Assembly: GCA_015060865.1 (NCBI GenBank)
Contig: SUXS01000012.1
Location: 41,313 to 105,312, forward strand
Direction: 5' to 3'
From: Bacteroidales bacterium
Lineage (GTDB): Bacteria > Bacteroidota > Bacteroidia > Bacteroidales > Bacteroidaceae
DNA: 64,000 bases
Shown here: positions 2,668-46,909 of the stretch, piece after piece
Layout of the letters: every line of letters starts with the position of its first letter
Position numbering within the stretch: position 1 is the stretch's first letter
Translations under genes and position numbers: made by a program
Notes under the pieces: generated by a model
What the model was told of the DNA's origin: nothing
What the model saw: the letters and a program-made list of their open reading frames with translations, nothing else
Databases searched by the model: none

Positions 2668-3021
2668 ATAAAAGTTGTTGATGAACTATATGTTATCTTA
2701 TGAATCGTGTATCGTGTTGCGCGATTAGGCCATTCTCTATTGGCGAAAGTTCATAAATCGGTTGGCAATGGCAGAGCTTTCTTAAAGTGAAACTTTATAT
2801 TGGCAGGGCCATGATGTCTACGTGTATACCCTGTATGCTTTTTCTATATTCCTATGTGCAGATGGTTTGTTGTTTGGAACTCCCTCCTGAGACGACTTTG
2901 GGAAACTAAAGTTTCCGTCGTCGCAAGCAACGCTCATCTCGCGTTGCCCCTCTATAAACAGAGGGACAGTTAGTTGGACGTTTTCATTAAGATATTTTTA
3001 TAATGCGTTTTCCCTGCGTCA

Positions 3022-3093
3022 CCGCGGTGAAACTATGTTGTCTCCGCGGTGAAAAGTGCTTTTCTCCGCGGAGATAATAAAACGCCACCGCGG
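3022..3093. repeat. array of four CCGCGG-centred palindromes with exact 22-bp phasing
   Basis: CCGCGG cores at 3022, 3044, 3066 and 3088 (tcaCCGCGGtga, tctCCGCGGtga, tctCCGCGGaga, ccaCCGCGGtgg). Confidence 0.8.
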
Positions 3094-3183
3094 TGGCGTG
3101 TGATTATCTATTTGTTCTCAGGGCTGACGCACTGGAAATATCTACAAAGATTATCATTTACTATCATAGAATCAGTTGTTTAT

Positions 3184-3233
3184 CCACGCGAATCTCGCAA
3201 ATCTCGCAGACCGACGCTAATGCTCCTCGTCGG
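3184..3233. repeat. solo 9-mer-repeat arm (CCACGCGAA TCTCGCAAA TCTCGCAGA) plus short hairpin, related to the 40-41 kb palindromic elements
   Basis: Direct match of the TCNCGCGAA x3 pattern to the left arms at 40273, 40672 and 41280. No inverted partner nearby. Followed by hairpin ccgacg..cgtcgg. Confidence 0.6.
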
Positions 3234-11293: not shown

Positions 11294-12904
11294 ATGAGAA
11301 AAATTTTTACACTTTTCTTCATGTCGATGTTCCTGGTGATAGGAACAGCCATGGCGCAGGATGATAGCGCCGACTCACTTAAACTCACGTTTCTAAATCC
11401 TAAAGATGGTGCAATGGAAACTTCCGTCTACAATATCCGACTTCAGTTCAACAAGGACGTTACAGCCACCCTTCCCGAAGGCGGTATTGATGTCGTGAAC
11501 AACGATACCAAGGAGGTTGTCAAGATTACCCGCATCTACAAGGATGAATGGACACCTGCCAACACCGTGCTCTTCTATTTTGAGCAGAAGATGATGCCTG
11601 ACAAGGATGGAAAGGGCGAAGAACTGCAAGACCAGTATATTGATACTCCCGGCTCCTATAGCTATACCATCCCCGCCGGCTGCATCAAGAGTGTCGATGG
11701 TGAGGAGTTTGCTGAGCACACCTTCACATTCAGTGTTGTAGGTACTTTTGGTGTAGAGAGCTATTCACCTCAAACGACCAGTAAGTTGGAGAAGATACAG
11801 ATAACCTTTACTGAAGAGGTTACCGAGGTGATATTTCCCAATAGCGGTTTGCCCGTTGTAGACGGTTATTGGACTCCCGTATCGTGGGTTAAGAATGATG
11901 TTGTAATCAGTGAAGACAAGAAGACTGTTACTTTTGAACTCGAGGAACCTATCACCGCAGAAGGTACGTATGGCATCGATCTTTATCAGGGAACGTTTGT
12001 TGGTCCCAAGGGTATCAATACTTACAGTTCGCTCATGTTCAATGTTATCGACAGTAATCCTTCTTTCGTAACCAACTTCCAGGAGGGCGAGCGGGTAAAG
12101 GAAATCGGCAATCTTGAAATTACTTTCAGGAATGTTAGCGAGGTGAAGCTCGTAGAGGGTGCAGAGCCTGTTACCGCATATCTCCCCGGTGATGGCGAAG
12201 CTACAGGTAAGGCTGCTTTGGCCAATAATAGGATTACCGTTACCTTTGATCAGCAGTTTACCGAAGAGGGTGTCTATACCTTTGTAATTCCTGCTGGTAT
12301 GTTCACTATGGATGGCGTGCCCAACGAACCTCGTGAGATCAATATCACTCTTTTCACCTTCTCTATCATTCCGCTTGAGGTTGATAGCGTAATTCCCGCA
12401 ATGGGCACAGTAGATAAGCTCGACCGCATCATTGTCGTATACAACCAGGATGTAACCCTCTCTATGGATGAGAACTGGCAGCAGATCTCACGCGAGATTG
12501 CCCTTACTTGTGGTGATAAGGTATATACGCTGACCTATAACTCCATGTCGAACCTTAGCAACAAGATTGAGTATCTTGTTAATGCTCAGTGGACAGGTTA
12601 TGAGTACGAGTCAACACCTATCACAGAAGCAGGAACCTATACTTTGAATCTTGCTGATATTATTGTAGACCACGCAGTAGAGGATTATATTGATGAGTGG
12701 GGTTATCCCAACAAGATGTGGCACTCAAAGGGCAAGTCTTGCGAGGGTACCTACACTTGGACCATCAGTGGCGACAACGCTATCAAGGTTGTAGCTCCTG
12801 AGACTGGTGAGCAGGTTATCTACGACCTTCTTGGCCGTCGCATCGAGAAGATTGTTGGTGATGGTATCTATATCGTCAATGGCAAGAAAGTTGTGATTAA
12901 GTGA
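11294..12904 (+). CDS. secreted Ig-like-repeat protein with T9SS C-terminal sorting domain
   Basis: Signal peptide and repeated beta-rich modules. The C-terminus VIYDLLGRRIEKIVGDGIYIVNGKKVVIK is typical of Por/T9SS CTDs. Confidence 0.65.
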   Translation: MRKIFTLFFMSMFLVIGTAMAQDDSADSLKLTFLNPKDGAMETSVYNIRLQFNKDVTATLPEGGIDVVNNDTKEVVKITRIYKDEWTPANTVLFYFEQKMMPDKDGKGEELQDQYIDTPGSYSYTIPAGCIKSVDGEEFAEHTFTFSVVGTFGVESYSPQTTSKLEKIQITFTEEVTEVIFPNSGLPVVDGYWTPVSWVKNDVVISEDKKTVTFELEEPITAEGTYGIDLYQGTFVGPKGINTYSSLMFNVIDSNPSFVTNFQEGERVKEIGNLEITFRNVSEVKLVEGAEPVTAYLPGDGEATGKAALANNRITVTFDQQFTEEGVYTFVIPAGMFTMDGVPNEPREINITLFTFSIIPLEVDSVIPAMGTVDKLDRIIVVYNQDVTLSMDENWQQISREIALTCGDKVYTLTYNSMSNLSNKIEYLVNAQWTGYEYESTPITEAGTYTLNLADIIVDHAVEDYIDEWGYPNKMWHSKGKSCEGTYTWTISGDNAIKVVAPETGEQVIYDLLGRRIEKIVGDGIYIVNGKKVVIK

Positions 12905-13023
12905 GAGCAGAAGACTGCTTGTAGGCTTATGCCGAACGTGAACAACTAAAACGCAGTTAAAGTTGTGATTAAGTGAGAGCAGAAGACTGCTTGTAGGCTT
13001 ATGCCGAACGTGAACAACTAAAA
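12887..13023. repeat. 72-bp-period tandem duplication of the gene 3' end and its downstream sequence
   Basis: The 65 nt at 12887-12951 are repeated exactly at 12959-13023. A third degenerate copy of the last codons plus stop (aaaaagattgttaagtag) follows at about 13031-13048. Confidence 0.85.
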
Positions 13024-38907: not shown

Positions 38908-39277
38908 TACTATCTATCTCTGTCCTCCAACGAATCATGCAGGATTCTATATCAACGCACAAGAAAAGCGCGGACAAAACTCAGTGTATCTGTCTTTGAG
39001 GTCTTCGACTACCTTGCACCAAATATACGAGTAAAGCCCACGCCTGATGGCGTGAGCGTCATCGCTTTACTCTTGGTGCCTAATGAAAGTGTCGAAGTTT
39101 CAAAGACAAGATCAAAGCTAAACGCTTTTCCAATATGTCTAAAATGTGCGTATCAGCTATACGCTAATGCTCCATAAGCTATACATTTATGTGTTATACT
39201 TTTGTTGTATCGTATGCAAAGAAACAAATTGTATTCCAAATATCCTAATTCTTTCTCGTTTTTTTGTAATAAGGCAG

Positions 39278-39373
39278 TCTCCCCGATTAGGCTGTCCGGC
39301 TGTCCTTGCCTTTTATAAGTAGATGAACCTCTGCAAATAAACAAGTACAGCCTCGGGTGTCCCGAGGCTGTAC
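39278..39373. repeat. GGCTGTCC composite repeat, copy 2
   Basis: tctccccgattaggctgtccggctgtccttgccttttataagtagatga, then hairpin gtacagcctcggg-tgt-cccgaggctgtac. Confidence 0.75.
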
Positions 39374-40121: not shown

Positions 40122-40272
40122 AGTATATTTTCCGTAATGACAAATATATTTTACATTTTATCGCGCAAACTTTATATTTTTTCTCTTCCGAATAAGTGAA
40201 ATGGATAAGAGATGCAATATGATTTCTTCCGATAAAGACATCTTATTCTTTCTCTCTTTTGACATGTTTTCC

Positions 40273-40391
40273 TCACGCGAATCTCGCGAATCACGCGAAA
40301 ACATACATCGCTATCGCTTGTATGTGGCCATCCGGATGGCAAACGCGAGTGAAACAATGCGTTTTTCGCGTGATTCGCGAGATTCGCGTGA
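40273..40391. repeat. palindromic element PAL1: perfect 29-bp inverted arms of three 9-mers enclosing three small hairpins
   Basis: tcacgcgaa tctcgcgaa tcacgcgaa aa at 40273-40301 is the exact reverse complement of 40363-40391. The interior holds cataca..tgtatg, the perfect palindrome GCCATCCGGATGGC (40327-40340), and aacgc..gcgtt. Confidence 0.9.
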
Positions 40392-40506
40392 AACATAAAC
40401 AGCGTGAAACTCAAATGTTTTCATAATGTATCTTCTTAGAGCGGACAAGCAGAACACTTTCAGTCGATGGTACGGAAAGTTCTGCGCCGCTTCTCTAATT
40501 CTTCAA

Positions 40507-40586
40507 ATATCCACGGATATTTACTTACGTATCCATGGATATTTCATCACGTATCCGTGGATATTTCATTACGTATCCACGGTTAC
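40507..40586. repeat. array of four TATCC-RY-GGATA palindromes with exact 22-bp phasing
   Basis: Dyad centres at 40513/14, 40535/36, 40557/58 and 40579/80 (atatccacggatat, gtatccatggatat, gtatccgtggatat, gtatccacggttac). Confidence 0.85.
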
Positions 40587-40671
40587 GCAAGTTTTTCTAT
40601 ACTGAAAACTTGCTTTTCGGGCAAATATTTCGTAACTTTACGGAGTAAACAGCGAAACTATTCGATAAGGC

Positions 40672-40808
40672 TCACGCGAATCTCGCAAATCACGCAAAGA
40701 GCACGCGCATTCGCTTGTGCTTGCCATCCGGCGCGAACACTCGGCGGAATCGCCGACAAACGCGAGCGAAGCGATGCGTTCTTCGTGAGATTCGTGAGAT
40801 TTGTGTGA
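40672..40808. repeat. palindromic element PAL2 (9-mer arms, GCCATCCGG core)
   Basis: Arms 40672-40700 and 40780-40808 pair with 22 Watson-Crick pairs, 4 G-U pairs and 3 mismatches when read as plus-strand RNA. Confidence 0.85.
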
Positions 40809-40868
40809 GGCAACAAAAAGATAAGCTTTTGCGTGAAACAAAAAAGAATTACATAAAACCAGAATACG

Positions 40869-41255
40869 ATGAAAGCAAAGGATCCACTATCATACAAGAT
40901 TATCGGTTGTGCGATGGAGGTGTACAACACGTTAGGGCCAGGGCTGCTGGAAGCCGCTTACGAGAAAGCTCTGATCCACGAATTGGAACTTAACGGATTA
41001 TCCGTAGCCTCGCAGGTGCCAGTGGAGATGAATTATAAAGGGGTGAACTTGGGAGAAGGTTTGCGGCTGGACCTGCTCGTGGAGGATTCCATCATCATAG
41101 AGCTAAAGTCCGTAGAGGAACTGAAGCCTGTACACTACAAGCAGTTGCTCACGTACCTCAAACTGATGGACAAACGTATAGGATTGCTCATCAATTTCAA
41201 CGTTTACGATTTCCGTGAGGGGATTAAGCGGGTTGTCAACGAATTCAAGGACTGA
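40869..41255 (+). CDS. GxxExxY protein (TIGR04256-like, PD-(D/E)xK superfamily)
   Basis: YKIIGCAMEVYNTLGPGLLEAAYEKALIHEL (G-LL-E-AA-Y) and DLLVEDSIIIELKSV. Confidence 0.8.
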   Translation: MKAKDPLSYKIIGCAMEVYNTLGPGLLEAAYEKALIHELELNGLSVASQVPVEMNYKGVNLGEGLRLDLLVEDSIIIELKSVEELKPVHYKQLLTYLKLMDKRIGLLINFNVYDFREGIKRVVNEFKD

Positions 41256-41279
41256 TATGCCGCTTGCATAACGTATTCC

Positions 41280-41418
41280 TCACGCGAATCTCGCGAATCT
41301 CGCAAAGAGCACGCGCATTCGCTTGTGCTTGCCATCCGGCGAGAACACACTCGGCGGAATCGCCGACAAACGCGAGCGCAGCGATGCGTTCTTCGTGAGA
41401 TTCGCGAGATTCGCGTGA
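41280..41418. repeat. palindromic element PAL3, direct repeat of PAL2
   Basis: Differs from PAL2 by 7 substitutions and one 2-nt indel. Arms pair with 27 Watson-Crick pairs, 1 G-U and 1 mismatch. Confidence 0.85.
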
Positions 41419-41474
41419 GACAAAAAGTAAGGAATAAGCTTTTGCGTGAAAAAGAATTATTAAACTAAGATATT

Positions 41475-42098
41475 ATGGCAAAATACATCAAACAAGAATT
41501 CAAGAGCATCAATGACGACAGTGAGAACAAGGCATACTATCGCATGGAGACGTCGCGTCGGGTGACGATGGCCGAGTTTGTTAAGGAAATCTCTATCCCG
41601 GGCTATGGCATCAGCGAGGCCACGGCAGTGCAGGTGCTCAGTCAGGCCGCCACATCGCTGGCCCGCCTCATGGCACACGGCTGCGCCGTGACGATTGACG
41701 GCATTGGCACCTTCAAGGCCACGATAGGCGTGTGCGAAGACAAGGAGCAGGATGCGTTTGTGGAGAACGAGCCGCAGCGCAATGCACAGAGCATCGAGGT
41801 GAACGGCGTGCACTACCGAGCCGACAAAGCGCTGGTGAAGGCCGTGCGCAGCCAATGCACGCTCGAGCGTGGCCAGCAGAGCCGCATCAAGCGCTCGCCC
41901 TACACGATGGAGGAGCGCATCAGTCGCGCCATTGCCTTCATCGAAGAGCACGGCTATATGCGCACTCGCGACTATGCTAATCTGAACGAGCTGTCCCTGT
42001 CGACCGCCACCGTGGAGCTACGCAAGGTGCGCAAGGAAGAGGCTTCGGGCATCCGCGCCATCGGGCGGGGAAGCAGCTTGGTTTATGTGAAGGGGTGA
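41475..42098 (+). CDS. HU_HIG-type histone-like DNA-binding protein with C-terminal winged-helix-like tail
   Basis: KAYYRMETSRRVTMAEFVKEIS..VQVLSQAATSLARLMAHGCAVTIDGIGTFKATIG. Confidence 0.7.
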   Translation: MAKYIKQEFKSINDDSENKAYYRMETSRRVTMAEFVKEISIPGYGISEATAVQVLSQAATSLARLMAHGCAVTIDGIGTFKATIGVCEDKEQDAFVENEPQRNAQSIEVNGVHYRADKALVKAVRSQCTLERGQQSRIKRSPYTMEERISRAIAFIEEHGYMRTRDYANLNELSLSTATVELRKVRKEEASGIRAIGRGSSLVYVKG

Positions 42099-42267
42099 GG
42101 AGAGGATTTCTCTACGAAGGCGCAAAGGAGCACTACATCCTCGACATCGAGCACAAGAGAGAGGCCGTGAAAGTGGTGCGAGCACTGGAGCAGGCCTTGC
42201 CTTATCCCAAACCAAAGAAAAAGAAGGGATAGAGGGGTAGCTGCGCTTACACCAAATGTAAATCTTC

Positions 42268-42367
42268 AAGGACAGCCCAAGGACAGCCCAGGCTGTCCTT
42301 GCTTATTTACTGACATTCTTTCGATTATGCCTTGTAAGGACAGCCGGACAGCCTATTCGGGAAAAAG
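42268..42367. repeat. GGCTGTCC composite repeat, copy 3 (inverted orientation)
   Basis: Hairpin caaggacagcc-caaggacagccc-aggctgtccttg, then ccttgtaaggacagccggacagcctattcgggaaaaag, which is the reverse complement of the copy 1/2 box. Confidence 0.75.
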
Positions 42368-46266: not shown

Positions 46267-46575
46267 ATGAACACTGCAACGAGAGAAAACATCATCCCCA
46301 AGTTGAGGGCCTATTTTGCTACTCAACCTATTGAGAGGGCTTGGCTGTTTGGATCCTTCTCGCGAGGCGAGGAGACCGAGACCAGCGATGTGGATATACT
46401 GGTCGACTTTGACAAGGGCGCTCGCATAGGATTGTTCAAGTATGCAGGCATCTATGGTGACTTGAAAGAACTGCTAGGGCGTGATGTGGATTTGGTGAAG
46501 AATGGCTCGCTAAAACCATTTGCTGTAGATAGCGCAAACCACGATAAAATACTTATCTATGAGAGAGCGAATTAA
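46267..46575 (+). CDS. mntA: MntA-type nucleotidyltransferase antitoxin
   Basis: GSFSRGEETETSDVDILVDF (GSx2RG..DxD). Confidence 0.85.
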   Translation: MNTATRENIIPKLRAYFATQPIERAWLFGSFSRGEETETSDVDILVDFDKGARIGLFKYAGIYGDLKELLGRDVDLVKNGSLKPFAVDSANHDKILIYERAN

Positions 46576-46909
46576 AGACCGCACCAGATTGCTCCATATG
46601 CTGGAAGGCATTGACAATATCATGGAGTTTAAGGAAGGAGTTGACTTTGAAACATTTGCCAACAACAAATTGCTTAAGTTCGGCATATTCTACAATGTAA
46701 CAATCATTGGTGAAGCTGCCTACAAGTTGACGAAAGAGTTTATCGCTTCTCATCCCGATGTGCCCTGGCGTGACATAATCAATATGCGCCACGTCTTAGT
46801 ACACGGGTACTATCAGATTGACCCTGAGATATTATGGGAGACGGTGAACAATGATCTTGTAGAACTCAAGACTGCACTACTCCGCTATTTGAAAGAAGAA
46901 GATTTATAA
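46559..46909 (+). CDS. hepT: HepT-type (DUF86) RNase toxin
   Basis: Rx4HxY motif RHVLVHGY. 17-nt overlap with mntA. Confidence 0.85.
   Translation: MRERIKDRTRLLHMLEGIDNIMEFKEGVDFETFANNKLLKFGIFYNVTIIGEAAYKLTKEFIASHPDVPWRDIINMRHVLVHGYYQIDPEILWETVNNDLVELKTALLRYLKEEDL

Follow-up and report, generated by a model that had tools for sequence, protein, structure and literature searches.

GxxExxY nuclease-family genes lie between inverted arrays of short tandem units that are also found in palindromes without the gene

GxxExxY genes enclosed by inverted arrays of short tandem repeats, together with gene-less palindromes built from similar arms, form a widespread and apparently undescribed design. Here, we analyze one case in a 64,000-nt stretch of Bacteroidales DNA (henceforth termed the window; coordinates count from its first letter), in which a GxxExxY gene and two of the palindromes (PALs) form a cassette. 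The original prediction of a palindromic carrier for GxxExxY genes is borne out well beyond this locus: a carrier built from short tandem units characterizes the GxxExxY family in general. Flank-to-flank repeats occur at 35 of 46 testable diverse loci (76%), compared with 5 of 134 (4%) for shifted controls placed on the same contigs. Literature searches by arm strings, GxxExxY, PDDEXK_3, and ISAs1 plus CAGGG retrieved no description of these elements, and Rfam, at gathering as well as permissive thresholds, contained no relevant family for the window or 12 related loci.

Genomes can carry several GxxExxY copies. The window protein matches TIGR04256 with 150.6 bits (cut-off 35) and PF13366 (PDDEXK_3) with 149.7 bits (cut-off 22). 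The residues G25-x-x-E28-x-x-Y31, D68, E78-x-K80, and Q92-x-x-x-Y96 are invariant across homologues that are 36–88% identical to it. Judged by sequence, GxxExxY genes are predicted to encode small, catalytically intact PD-(D/E)XK nucleases. The PF13366 family comprises 20,135 clusters at 50% identity and is annotated in numerous bacterial as well as some archaeal genomes. Steczkiewicz et al. (2012) listed it as “function unknown”, and its clades mix bacterial and archaeal members (PMC3424549). A role as a defense system was rejected, as searches with PADLOC and PHROGs models gave only weak Cas4-type similarity (Cas4-core matches at E = 4e-4) and no PHROG match. A PDB sequence search with the protein found nothing. 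Only the α-β-β-β-α-β order of the AlphaFold model is usable at a pLDDT of 52.6, its Foldseek matches being meaningless, and a further protein search, run from a mixed alignment, yielded the known close homologues once more and hence no deep alignment.

Table 1. Features of the cassette locus and of further arm-related sites in the window
Feature	Position	Strand	Description
Isolated right terminus of CAGGG-type MITE	2992..3017	+	TTTTTATAATGCGTTTTCCCTG; 26/26 identical to the L080 MITE end
Solo left arm	3177..3212	+	CCACGCGAATCTCGCAAATCTCGCAGA, then small hairpins; fourth arm site in the window
PAL1-bearing MITE-like unit	40203..40439	.	~237 nt; diverged copy (82% identity) of the 238-nt MITE
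PAL1	40273..40391	.	119-nt palindrome; arms of 3 x TCNCGCGAA
22-nt tandem repeats, three to four	40496..40583	.	TATCCACGGATA-type palindrome in each
Putative Bacteroidota -7 promoter box	40633..40640	+	TAACTTTA; read off the sequence; 11 nt upstream of the cassette junction
797-nt segment missing in L007	40652..41448	+	PAL2, leader, GxxExxY, PAL3, and part of the second leader
PAL2	40672..40808	.	137-nt palindrome; right arm decayed through CpG transitions
Leader, PAL2 to GxxExxY start codon	40809..40868	+	Homologous to the HU leader; additional arm-like unit TTTGCGTGA
GxxExxY gene	40869..41255	+	128-aa PD-(D/E)XK nuclease-family protein; TIGR04256, PF13366
PAL3	41280..41418	.	139-nt palindrome; direct copy of PAL2
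Leader, PAL3 to HU-HIG start codon	41419..41474	+	Final 26 nt match the native leader retained in L007
HU-HIG DNA-binding protein gene	41475..42098	+	PF18291; host gene, cassette in its upstream region

The palindromes PAL1, PAL2, and PAL3 lie where the original prediction had placed them (Table 1), and its account of their composition also stands. The TCNCGCGAA unit is tripled in the arms, far above chance expectation, and the right arm of PAL2 has decayed; a GCCATCCGG core is found in all three; and PAL2 differs from PAL3 by 7 substitutions and one 2-nt indel. Both GxxExxY and HU-HIG are preceded by the same palindrome and leader, since the PAL2/PAL3 similarity runs on to both start codons, and each leader contains a near -7-like TAAGCTTTTG. 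A two-unit arm pattern matches the window 13 times (0.13 expected), a count reached in 0 of 100 shuffles; the solo left arm is thereby placed at 3184–3212, and no partner of it was found in the window. The arms of PAL1 are complementary at 29 of 29 positions. Single-strand DNA folding yielded z values of -10.2 for PAL1, with a fold energy of -51.1 kcal/mol, -2.7 for PAL2, and -7.3 for PAL3. Flip/flop comparison of the PAL cores gave partial or ambiguous inversions. PLSDB held no match to PAL3, and neither a PAL nor a close GxxExxY relative was found in viral contigs. A reading of the PAL as a parS site was rejected, the resemblance being limited to a half-site (GCGTGAAAC).

The PAL2-GxxExxY-PAL3 cassette has no recognized promoter of its own and lies just downstream of the putative HU-HIG promoter and upstream of the HU-HIG start codon. 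The consensus of the Bacteroidota -7 box is TAnnTTTG, and the TAACTTTA box would be a putative promoter element of this type. The 22-nt repeats are kept in all alleles, including L010, where the upstream gene is a different one, and cassette-free L007; they are probably an operator of the host promoter, outside the cassette.

In related genomes, the HU-HIG gene (PF18291 match) occurs with or without the cassette. Allele L007 has an intact HU gene and no PAL at all, and the whole PAL1-bearing stretch is missing from it as well. Alignment with L007 places the junction of the 797-nt segment between GGAGTAAACA and AAAAAAGAAC; the segment has GCGAAAC at its start and GCTTTTGCGTG at its end, both arm-unit-like. 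HU-gene distances place L007 among cassette-bearing alleles, and the outgroup L146 has the cassette, which favors a secondary deletion in L007 over a site that never received the cassette. The cassette at the HU locus is old. Its PAL2 survives as a deletion remnant in L009, whereas L012 has a truncated and L010 a broken copy. Among the HU-locus alleles, GxxExxY shows a pN of 0 at a pS of 0.13–0.23. Purifying selection of this strength on a gene at a fixed locus could reflect a host function unrelated to mobility.

A second locus, found in related gut Bacteroidaceae, has a GxxExxY gene of 88% identity, with an FtsX permease gene on one side and a response-regulator (RR) gene on the other. Here the gene is PAL-flanked in 14 contigs, some with 2–3 PALs in tandem; a perfect TACCTTTG -7 box precedes the cassette junction by 3 nt. 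The comparison of related strains that had been proposed with the original prediction revealed alleles lacking the unit at both the HU locus (L007) and the RR locus (L233). The earlier proposal that the cassette was inserted by way of the PAL in front of the HU gene survives in part: PAL and GxxExxY travel together, as the PAL-GxxExxY-PAL arrangement of the second locus illustrates, and cassette-free alleles exist at both loci, but L007 is free of PALs and thus lends no support to recombination at a pre-existing PAL before HU. None of the loci compared showed a recently transposed gene-bearing cassette, and gene-bearing units have no visible target-site duplication on their flanks. The boundaries at both loci show just short imperfect direct repeats, which would fit illegitimate recombination as well as a dedicated mechanism. 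The RR-locus contigs L132 and L134 have a Phage_integrase gene 2 kb downstream, which L133 and L135 lack; no integrase was called alongside the HU locus.

The arms appear to be constrained in their own right. The PAL3 arm and the second-locus arm are identical at 26 of 27 positions, while synonymous sites between the two GxxExxY copies are saturated (pS 0.97, pN/pS 0.07). Mismatches in the stems, read on the sense strand, comprise 23 G·U, 22 A·C, and 31 others. Because the arms are near-identical despite synonymous saturation and the stems show no G·U bias, the data point to a DNA-level role of the arms.

To assess generality, we used a diverse set of 80 metagenomic GxxExxY loci; most of our data are metagenomic contigs. 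A flank repeat is missing at 24% of the testable loci, and L235 has a PAL downstream only. Arms in this set consist of 2–4 tandem 8–10-mers with the core C-R-C-N-R-A-N; at 33 of 80 loci, versus 3 of 68 controls, the most frequent 7-mer of the flanks fits this core. The CGCGAA unit is missing from all 80 diverse loci, and the link between classes thus rests on the shared design and the loose core. In all DNA retrieved here, tandem-unit inverted arms spaced 250–1000 nt apart enclose GxxExxY in 50 of the 61 cases. The remaining 11 are arm pairs formed across adjacent PALs within a cassette, plus a single gene-less array (L123); no other gene was found between such arm pairs. Arm class and protein are also linked: GxxExxY identity is 55.6% within a unit class versus 46.3% between classes, a gap equaled in 0 of 2000 permutations.

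In several phyla, the gene sits exactly at the center of a single palindrome. Among the matches listed, a contig binned as Methanocorpusculum (L114) holds a 40%-identical GxxExxY within one large palindrome with the same 9-mers as the window PALs (arms ~144 nt, 92%). Finished isolate genomes show the same design, with GxxExxY between radA and an FAD-dependent protein gene in Bacteroides finegoldii, between ade and manC in Bernardetia, and between fabD and fabG in Sphingomonas. In P. nigrescens, a module of hairpin plus units is directly repeated ahead of two successive ORFs. Cassettes occupy fab, his, and sugar-nucleotide operons, and GxxExxY is co-oriented with its neighbors in 77–78% of cases, which is not clearly above the bacterial background.

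A search for further PAL copies and the genes they flank, as suggested with the original prediction, had a mixed outcome: PALs accompany GxxExxY at the second locus, but they also occur without the gene beside unrelated genes. The Bacteroidaceae MAG SGB_1324 contains a cassette (L087) plus solo PALs (L080 and L099). Sphingomonas parapaucimobilis YK209 has one cassette, and its arm has matches on four other replicons; at the three places examined, each on a different one of the other replicons, the arm forms gene-less nested palindromes. Gene-less copies were also found downstream of genes and between convergent genes. Among the matches listed, TCNCGCGAA-type 9-mers occur in gene-less palindromes of Alphaproteobacteria, Gemmatimonadota, Chloroflexota, Verrucomicrobiota, and Acidobacteriota; the genome scan pattern behind this listing is loose and produces many chance matches in high-GC genomes.

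PAL1 requires a separate account. The palindrome is real, but it is part of a separate MITE, an element that has terminal repeats of its own and is bounded by 10-bp target duplications elsewhere. Over 218 nt, the PAL1-bearing unit can be aligned with the MITE of L080 and L020. This 238-nt element has the terminal inverted repeats CAGGGAAAACGCATTATAA...TTATAATGCGTTTTCCCTG in L080, L020, and L022, which are degenerate in the window copy, and 10-bp target duplications of CCTTCCTCTA (L080), AGCCATAAAA (L020), and ATTCTCTTTA (L022); none is recognizable around the window copy. MITE copies are ~238 nt long, contain no ORF, and are 98–99% identical across two MAGs, with several located at contig ends. 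Such near-identical copies suggest a DDE transposase acting in trans; none was identified for the MITE of PAL1. The CAGGG ends and 8–10-bp duplications presumably fit the ISAs1 family as the parent of the MITE.

Building on the architecture and its enrichment, the co-inheritance of gene and arms, presence and absence at two loci, gene-less cognates, arm constraint, and DNA-level symmetry, we propose that the cassette is one lineage of a very widespread architecture in which a GxxExxY gene resides in inverted tandem arrays and its putative nuclease acts on its own arms. We regard this explanation as moderately probable. GxxExxY genes are enclosed by inverted arrays of 2–4 tandem 8–10-nt units or lie amid alternating arrays, and gene and arms are co-inherited as a single unit. 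The gene-less version, i.e., the arm, a short core, and the inverted arm that make up a PAL, is dispersed in the same genomes, often nested in other palindromes, and can be carried onward by other elements, as PAL1 is inside its 238-nt MITE. The tandem units would serve as putative binding or cleavage sites of the GxxExxY nuclease, which may act on the arms or on extruded cruciforms, with host recombination and repair then copying, deleting, and nesting the elements. Such a relationship would parallel the REPIN/RAYT partnership but involve another enzyme. More tentatively, GxxExxY proteins might be the cognate enzymes of an unrecognized superfamily of palindromic elements in Bacteria and Archaea, with each lineage recognizing its own arms and cutting driving their copying, nesting, and loss. 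This would constitute a second, independently evolved REPIN/RAYT-like partnership, based on the PD-(D/E)XK fold; we consider this broader reading possible but somewhat doubtful.

An RNA-level element of the intervening sequence (IVS) type is a rather unlikely alternative in our estimate and can coexist with a DNA-level role. The arms would pair in the transcript, so that the ORF either lies within a long stem or has a hairpin on each side, and would matter as RNA structure instead of as DNA sites. RNase III-type processing would then cut the GxxExxY message out of the host mRNA or insulate it, so that a selfish gene is tolerated in 5' UTRs and operons. Cassettes do lie in transcribed spacers, after -7 boxes and within operons, PALs fold strongly, and the ORF-in-stem layout resembles the Coxiella 23S rRNA IVS with its bounding inverted repeats (PMC4990558). 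The co-orientation with neighbors (77–78%) would also agree with this explanation, were it not close to the usual bacterial background. RNase III- or IVS-type processing, already considered in the original prediction, gains no support from the stem mismatches, as sense-strand G·U pairs are not in excess over A·C (23 versus 22). In addition, the arm sequence itself is conserved beyond pairing while synonymous sites saturate, tandem 8–10-mers with a cross-phylum core are unnecessary for a stem, and no Rfam family matches.

The remaining explanations assign the palindromes to other causes. If PALs were ordinary REP/MITE-like repeats that are moved by an unrelated transposase and gather around acquired small genes, GxxExxY would be a coincidental passenger. 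PALs without GxxExxY beside unrelated genes, the spread of PAL1 within a CAGGG-ended MITE with 10-bp target duplications, and the breaking of assemblies, as by multicopy repeats, are what one would then see. We nevertheless think this very unlikely, given that flank repeats occur at 76% of GxxExxY loci and 4% of same-contig controls, that arm class follows protein phylogeny, that the gene lies exactly mid-palindrome in several phyla, and that no other kind of gene was found between such arm pairs in all DNA retrieved. We give similarly little credence to a regulatory module, in which PAL plus leader would be the cis-regulatory unit of both genes, for instance an attenuator, an array of operators, or a leader with a promoter, and a local tandem duplication of the HU leader would have made or captured the GxxExxY slot, the regulator that binds the repeats being perhaps HU-HIG or the neighboring HTH protein. 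Such a module would account for the shared PAL and leader ahead of both ORFs, the near -7-like TAAGCTTTTG in both leaders, the tandem amplification of PAL units at the second locus, and the repeated hairpin-plus-units module before two successive ORFs in P. nigrescens. Natural allele L007, however, keeps an intact HU gene without any PAL, the same arms flank GxxExxY before an unrelated response-regulator gene and in an archaeon-binned contig, and gene-less copies occur downstream of genes as well as between convergent ones.

Among known systems, REPIN-RAYT pairs offer the closest set of parallels to the proposed nuclease–arm partnership: an enzyme gene between its own cognate palindromic repeats (PMC3116915, PMC3337134, PMC5581495, bioRxiv 10.1101/2021.07.10.451892), many gene-less palindromic copies within the same genome, both intergenic and in operon spacers, largely vertical co-inheritance of gene and repeat class at a fixed locus under purifying selection, and arrays of alternating inverted units. 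The enzymes differ, GxxExxY being a PD-(D/E)XK nuclease of ~125 aa and RAYT an HUH/Y1 transposase, and so do the repeats: GxxExxY arms are 2–4 tandem 8–10-mers, often with the gene in the loop of one palindrome, whereas REPINs are inverted REP hairpins with a GTAG-type head. Neither a RAYT nor any second gene was present between the cassette arms in the loci examined, and mobilization of GxxExxY cassettes is something that we so far infer. PALs also resemble MITEs such as the Neisseria Correia elements and nested MITEs in being short, ORF-less, multicopy, intergenic, prone to nesting, and located in transcribed regions, with inverted termini; the TCNCGCGAA-armed PALs themselves, however, come without detected target duplication or DDE parent, and GxxExxY is the sole gene found between arms.

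With the 23S rRNA IVS, as in Coxiella with S23p (PMC4990558), the cassette shares a small, selfish-looking ORF and long-stem inverted repeats that are tolerated in a host transcript. It lies, in contrast, between protein-coding genes (there is no rRNA in the window), encodes a PD-(D/E)XK protein instead of a four-helix bundle, has arms of tandem units, and shows no sign of RNA-specific pairing conservation. Integron cassettes likewise have an arrayable ORF without recognized promoter, a putative host promoter just upstream, and an imperfect palindrome of 60–140 nt alongside. The attC reading was rejected since the PAL ends TCACGCGAA...TTCGCGTGA differ from the R''/R' GTTRRRY core sites; moreover, PALs occupy both sides of one constant gene family, apparently unaccompanied by IntI or attI. 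Free-standing PD-(D/E)XK homing genes split a conserved target and are not known to have inverted tandem-unit arrays around them, whereas GxxExxY insertion sites are unrelated intergenic spacers. Common to homing endonuclease and GxxExxY genes are their small size, the shared nuclease superfamily, a patchy distribution, and indications of horizontal transfer, such as the mixed bacterial/archaeal clades noted for PF13366 (PMC3424549).

The palindromes make up a widespread intergenic class that breaks metagenome assemblies and creates spurious ORF calls, sits within operons and 5' UTRs, and marks breakpoints of deletions and rearrangements. For the GxxExxY family, the genomic context suggests a concrete substrate hypothesis, namely the inverted, lineage-specific tandem arrays plus the gene-less copies of their arms. 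If true, the partnership would assign a function to a family of ~20,000 clusters at 50% identity, and REPIN/RAYT would no longer be the sole known long-lived pairing of an enzyme gene with intragenomic palindromes.

Three palindromes whose arms are inverted arrays of tandem 9-mers, PAL1 to PAL3, were located on re-reading the sequence where the original prediction had placed them and built as it had described, and comparing PAL2 with PAL3 reproduced the claimed 7 substitutions and a 2-nt indel. The likeness of these two extends up to the start codons of the genes that follow, as the proposed shared palindrome-plus-leader implied. The gene after PAL2 encodes a GxxExxY protein (TIGR04256, 150.6 bits; PF13366), the gene after PAL3 an HU-HIG protein (PF18291), and we refer to PAL2, its leader, the GxxExxY gene, PAL3 and part of the second leader as the cassette. 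A two-unit arm pattern has 13 matches in the window against 0.13 expected (reached in 0/100 shuffles), and single-stranded DNA folding gave z-scores of -10.2, -2.7 and -7.3 for PAL1, PAL2 and PAL3, respectively. No Rfam family matched the window.

Features of the window (window positions)
Feature	Position	Description
PAL1	40273-40391	perfect 29-nt arms of three tandem TCNCGCGAA units
PAL2	40672-40808	PAL3 is a direct copy
PAL3	41280-41418	PAL2 is a direct copy
Solo arm	3184-3212	
Putative Bacteroidota -7 box	40633-40640	TAACTTTA; cassette starts 11 nt downstream
Additional segment relative to L007	40203-40439	PAL1 unit
Additional segment relative to L007	40652-41448	cassette
22-nt tandem repeats	40496-40583	three to four, one TATCCACGGATA-type palindrome each; directly upstream of putative HU promoter
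26-nt inverted repeat	39275-39312 and 42333-42362	GGACAGCC tandem units; encloses HTH-to-HU block (~3 kb)
Hairpin	42267-42300	CAAGGACAGCC...GGCTGTCCTTG, after HU gene
Genes in variable region right of HU	~46267-46909	nucleotidyltransferase (PF01909)/HepT (PF01934) toxin-antitoxin pair and DUF6602 gene (from L001 10793-11435)
Tandem duplication	12887-13023	72-nt unit, perfect (1.9 copies, 100% match)
MITE terminus	2992-3017	isolated, CAGGG-type
22-nt repeats after MITE terminus	3018-3071	CACCGCGGTGAAAC/TCCGCGGAGA motifs (region 2992-3100)

The GxxExxY family comprises 20,135 clusters at 50% identity and is listed as of unknown function, with mixed bacterial/archaeal clades (PMC3424549). Homologues share invariant E28, D68, E78-x-K80 and Q92-xxx-Y96. 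The protein had no match among PHROG, defence-system models or PDB sequences; outside similarities were limited to weak Cas4-core matches, and the predicted structure was usable only for an α-β-β-β-α-β order.

Exact-protein look-ups retrieved alleles of this HU locus from metagenomic contigs; the orthologous L087 stems from an uncultured “Bacteroidaceae bacterium” MAG. The allele L007 encodes exactly this HU protein behind the same set of genes, but lacks PAL1, PAL2, the GxxExxY gene and PAL3. Elsewhere PAL2 is reduced to a remnant (L009) or lacks its last arm unit (L012), and a right arm is broken in L010. By HU-gene distance L007 falls within the cassette-bearing alleles (13-25 differences), and the outgroup L146 (~58 differences) has the cassette, which makes a secondary deletion most simply the reading of L007; its junction (GTAAACA / GTGAAACA) is located in arm-like units. 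The insertion polymorphism that the original prediction called for thus exists as presence and absence, but it is no evidence of a recent insertion, L007 being a likely deletion. The octamer upstream of the cassette is a plausible Bacteroidota -7 promoter box.

The 22-nt repeats preceding it are kept in all alleles, the cassette-free one included; they look like an operator array, and their half-site resembles a DnaA box (TTATCCACA). The right side of HU is wholly different between alleles: L146 has prfB there, L010 a DUF4988/LRR protein gene and L009 TfoX. The GGACAGCC inverted repeat and the hairpin near HU may mark an inversion/insertion boundary or belong to a further family of tandem-unit repeats.

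GxxExxY homologues with 88% identity occupy a second Bacteroidaceae site, here called the response-regulator (RR) locus, with an FtsX/MacB permease gene on one side and a response-regulator/histidine-kinase operon on the other. Here too the gene is PAL-bracketed, bearing out the proposal that PAL and GxxExxY travel as one unit; two or three tandem PALs lie downstream in some contigs, and the cassette starts 3 nt past a perfect TACCTTTG -7 box. L233, with an 84%-identical response-regulator ortholog and the same synteny, has no cassette and its -7 box 8 nt before the ATG, so that presence/absence is seen at two loci; beside a 75% ortholog, the GxxExxY gene has a single decayed PAL, downstream only. 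Comparison of the HU-locus with the RR-locus cassette shows saturation at synonymous sites (pS 0.97), yet the arms are 26/27 identical and therefore sequence-constrained or homogenised. The low pN (pN/pS 0.07 between loci; pN 0 with pS 0.13-0.23 among HU-locus alleles) implies strong purifying selection on the protein. L137 (3900-4000) has a different left neighbourhood at the RR locus, with umuD/umuC-like genes, and its upstream PAL is represented by the right arm alone, suggesting that a rearrangement had its breakpoint within a PAL. An identical unusual broken right arm (GAGATTGCCTTTRGCCCCTTYGGGCGGCGAAC...) in the upstream PALs of L010 (5910-5990, HU locus) and L140 (3895-3945, RR locus) hints at sequence exchange between cassettes of different loci.

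A genome-collection scan found the arms in at least four Bacteroidaceae MAGs, frequently at contig ends, a typical position for multicopy repeats. PAL1-type cores are contained in a gene-less 238-nt MITE (termini CAGGGAAAACGCATTATAA...TTATAATGCGTTTTCCCTG), which is bordered by 10-bp target duplications in each of three separate locations. Its copies in two MAGs are 98-99% identical; the copy in the window is related at 82% and has unrecognisable ends. Palindromes also nest: a PAL2/3-subtype PAL between paralogous membrane-protein genes lies within a second palindrome with TCACACAGA arms. Since the neighbours of these solo PALs are unrelated to GxxExxY, PALs are a repeat family of their own. 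Gene-less arrays and nested palindromes of other unit types, CTCACGCAGAGACCGCAGA and TCACACAGA, occur in Bacteroidaceae MAGs (L123 1832-2319; L088 1270-1540), meaning that a single genome harbours several classes of arm. The repeats after the window's isolated MITE terminus are a distinct palindromic repeat, though built in a similar style.

Scanning metagenomes with an alignment of four sequences as query yielded 80 diverse GxxExxY loci (35-72% identity). The arm-flanked design is common to them despite the absence of the CGCGAA unit (0/80). Among loci with full flanks, 35/46 had significant upstream-downstream repeats, compared with 5/134 pseudo-genes shifted within the same contigs. Inverted arms consist of 2-4 tandem 8-10-mers (units such as CACGAAG, CACAGAG, CGCAGAG, CGCAAAG, CACATAG, ACAGGAT and CACGGAA), and C-R-C-N-R-A-N describes the most frequent 7-mer of the flanks in 33/80 loci versus 3/68 controls. 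Protein identity is 55.6% within and 46.3% between unit classes, a difference reached in 0/2000 permutations; gene and lineage-specific tandem-unit arms are a co-inherited unit. In all fetched DNA, pairs of inverted tandem-unit arms with a spacing of 250-1000 nt have GxxExxY between them in 50/61 cases, the other 11 being arm pairs of neighbouring PALs of the same cassettes and one gene-less array (L123).

Where flank repeats are direct, arm and inverted arm alternate in arrays to either side of the gene. Of these cassettes, one is placed within an apparent sugar-nucleotide operon and another, by its translated flanks, between apparent cas1 and cas2. Such a position, inside a CRISPR adaptation module with cas1 and cas2 as neighbours, is read from the translated flanks for the CACAGAG-armed cassette of L188 (3001-3360) and is of note given the weakly Cas4-like core of the protein. 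L217 (3001-3700) holds two tandem cassettes, the second with an internal deletion and arm units translated as N-terminus (TTEFTEKHGK); two GxxExxY domains are also present in many 270-295-aa proteins of the database (P0260-P0267).

The same design in PLSDB isolate records shows that it is no assembly artefact: GxxExxY lies between radA and a FAD-dependent protein gene in B. finegoldii (arms TTCACCACAGAGGACGCAGAGGACACGGAG and complement), ade and manC in Bernardetia, and fabD and fabG in Sphingomonas parapaucimobilis (arm TCACGCGAAGGCGCGAGGACGCGAAG), and P. nigrescens has a hairpin-plus-ACAAATC module as direct repeat on both sides. Gene-less cognate palindromes can share the genome of a cassette: in the Sphingomonas strain the arm recurs on four other replicons, and the three examined places are triply nested gene-less palindromes, e.g., in the hisF-hisE spacer and downstream of purQ. 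A Methanocorpusculum-binned contig holds a 40%-identical GxxExxY gene within one palindrome that uses the 9-mers of the window's PALs (arms ~144 nt, 92% identity; outer ends GAACCGCGAATCACGCGAATCTCG and complement). Gene-less 100-300 nt palindromes with (C/T)CGCRAATC-unit arms adjoin housekeeping genes in MAGs of Alphaproteobacteria, Gemmatimonadota, Chloroflexota, Verrucomicrobiota and Acidobacteriota, among the matches listed.

Processing of the palindromes as RNA, similar to IVS elements (cf. PMC4990558), is a live and partly compatible explanation. Sense-strand stem mismatches comprise 23 G·U, 22 A·C and 31 others, so that RNA pairing on one strand is not the conserved property, and co-orientation with neighbouring genes (77-78%) is near the bacterial background. 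Together with arm conservation and the tandem-unit design, the mismatches favour arms acting at the DNA level, e.g., through protein binding or cruciform formation. The closest analogue of cassettes with gene-less PALs is REPIN/RAYT, REP palindromes and their transposase (PMC3116915, PMC3337134, PMC5581495), but the cassette falls outside that group because it has neither an HUH/Y1 transposase as its enzyme nor REP hairpins as its repeats. No earlier account of a palindromic GxxExxY carrier was found in Rfam or the openly searchable literature. We propose that the GxxExxY nuclease acts on its own arms, an activity that would drive the copying, nesting and deletion of these elements.
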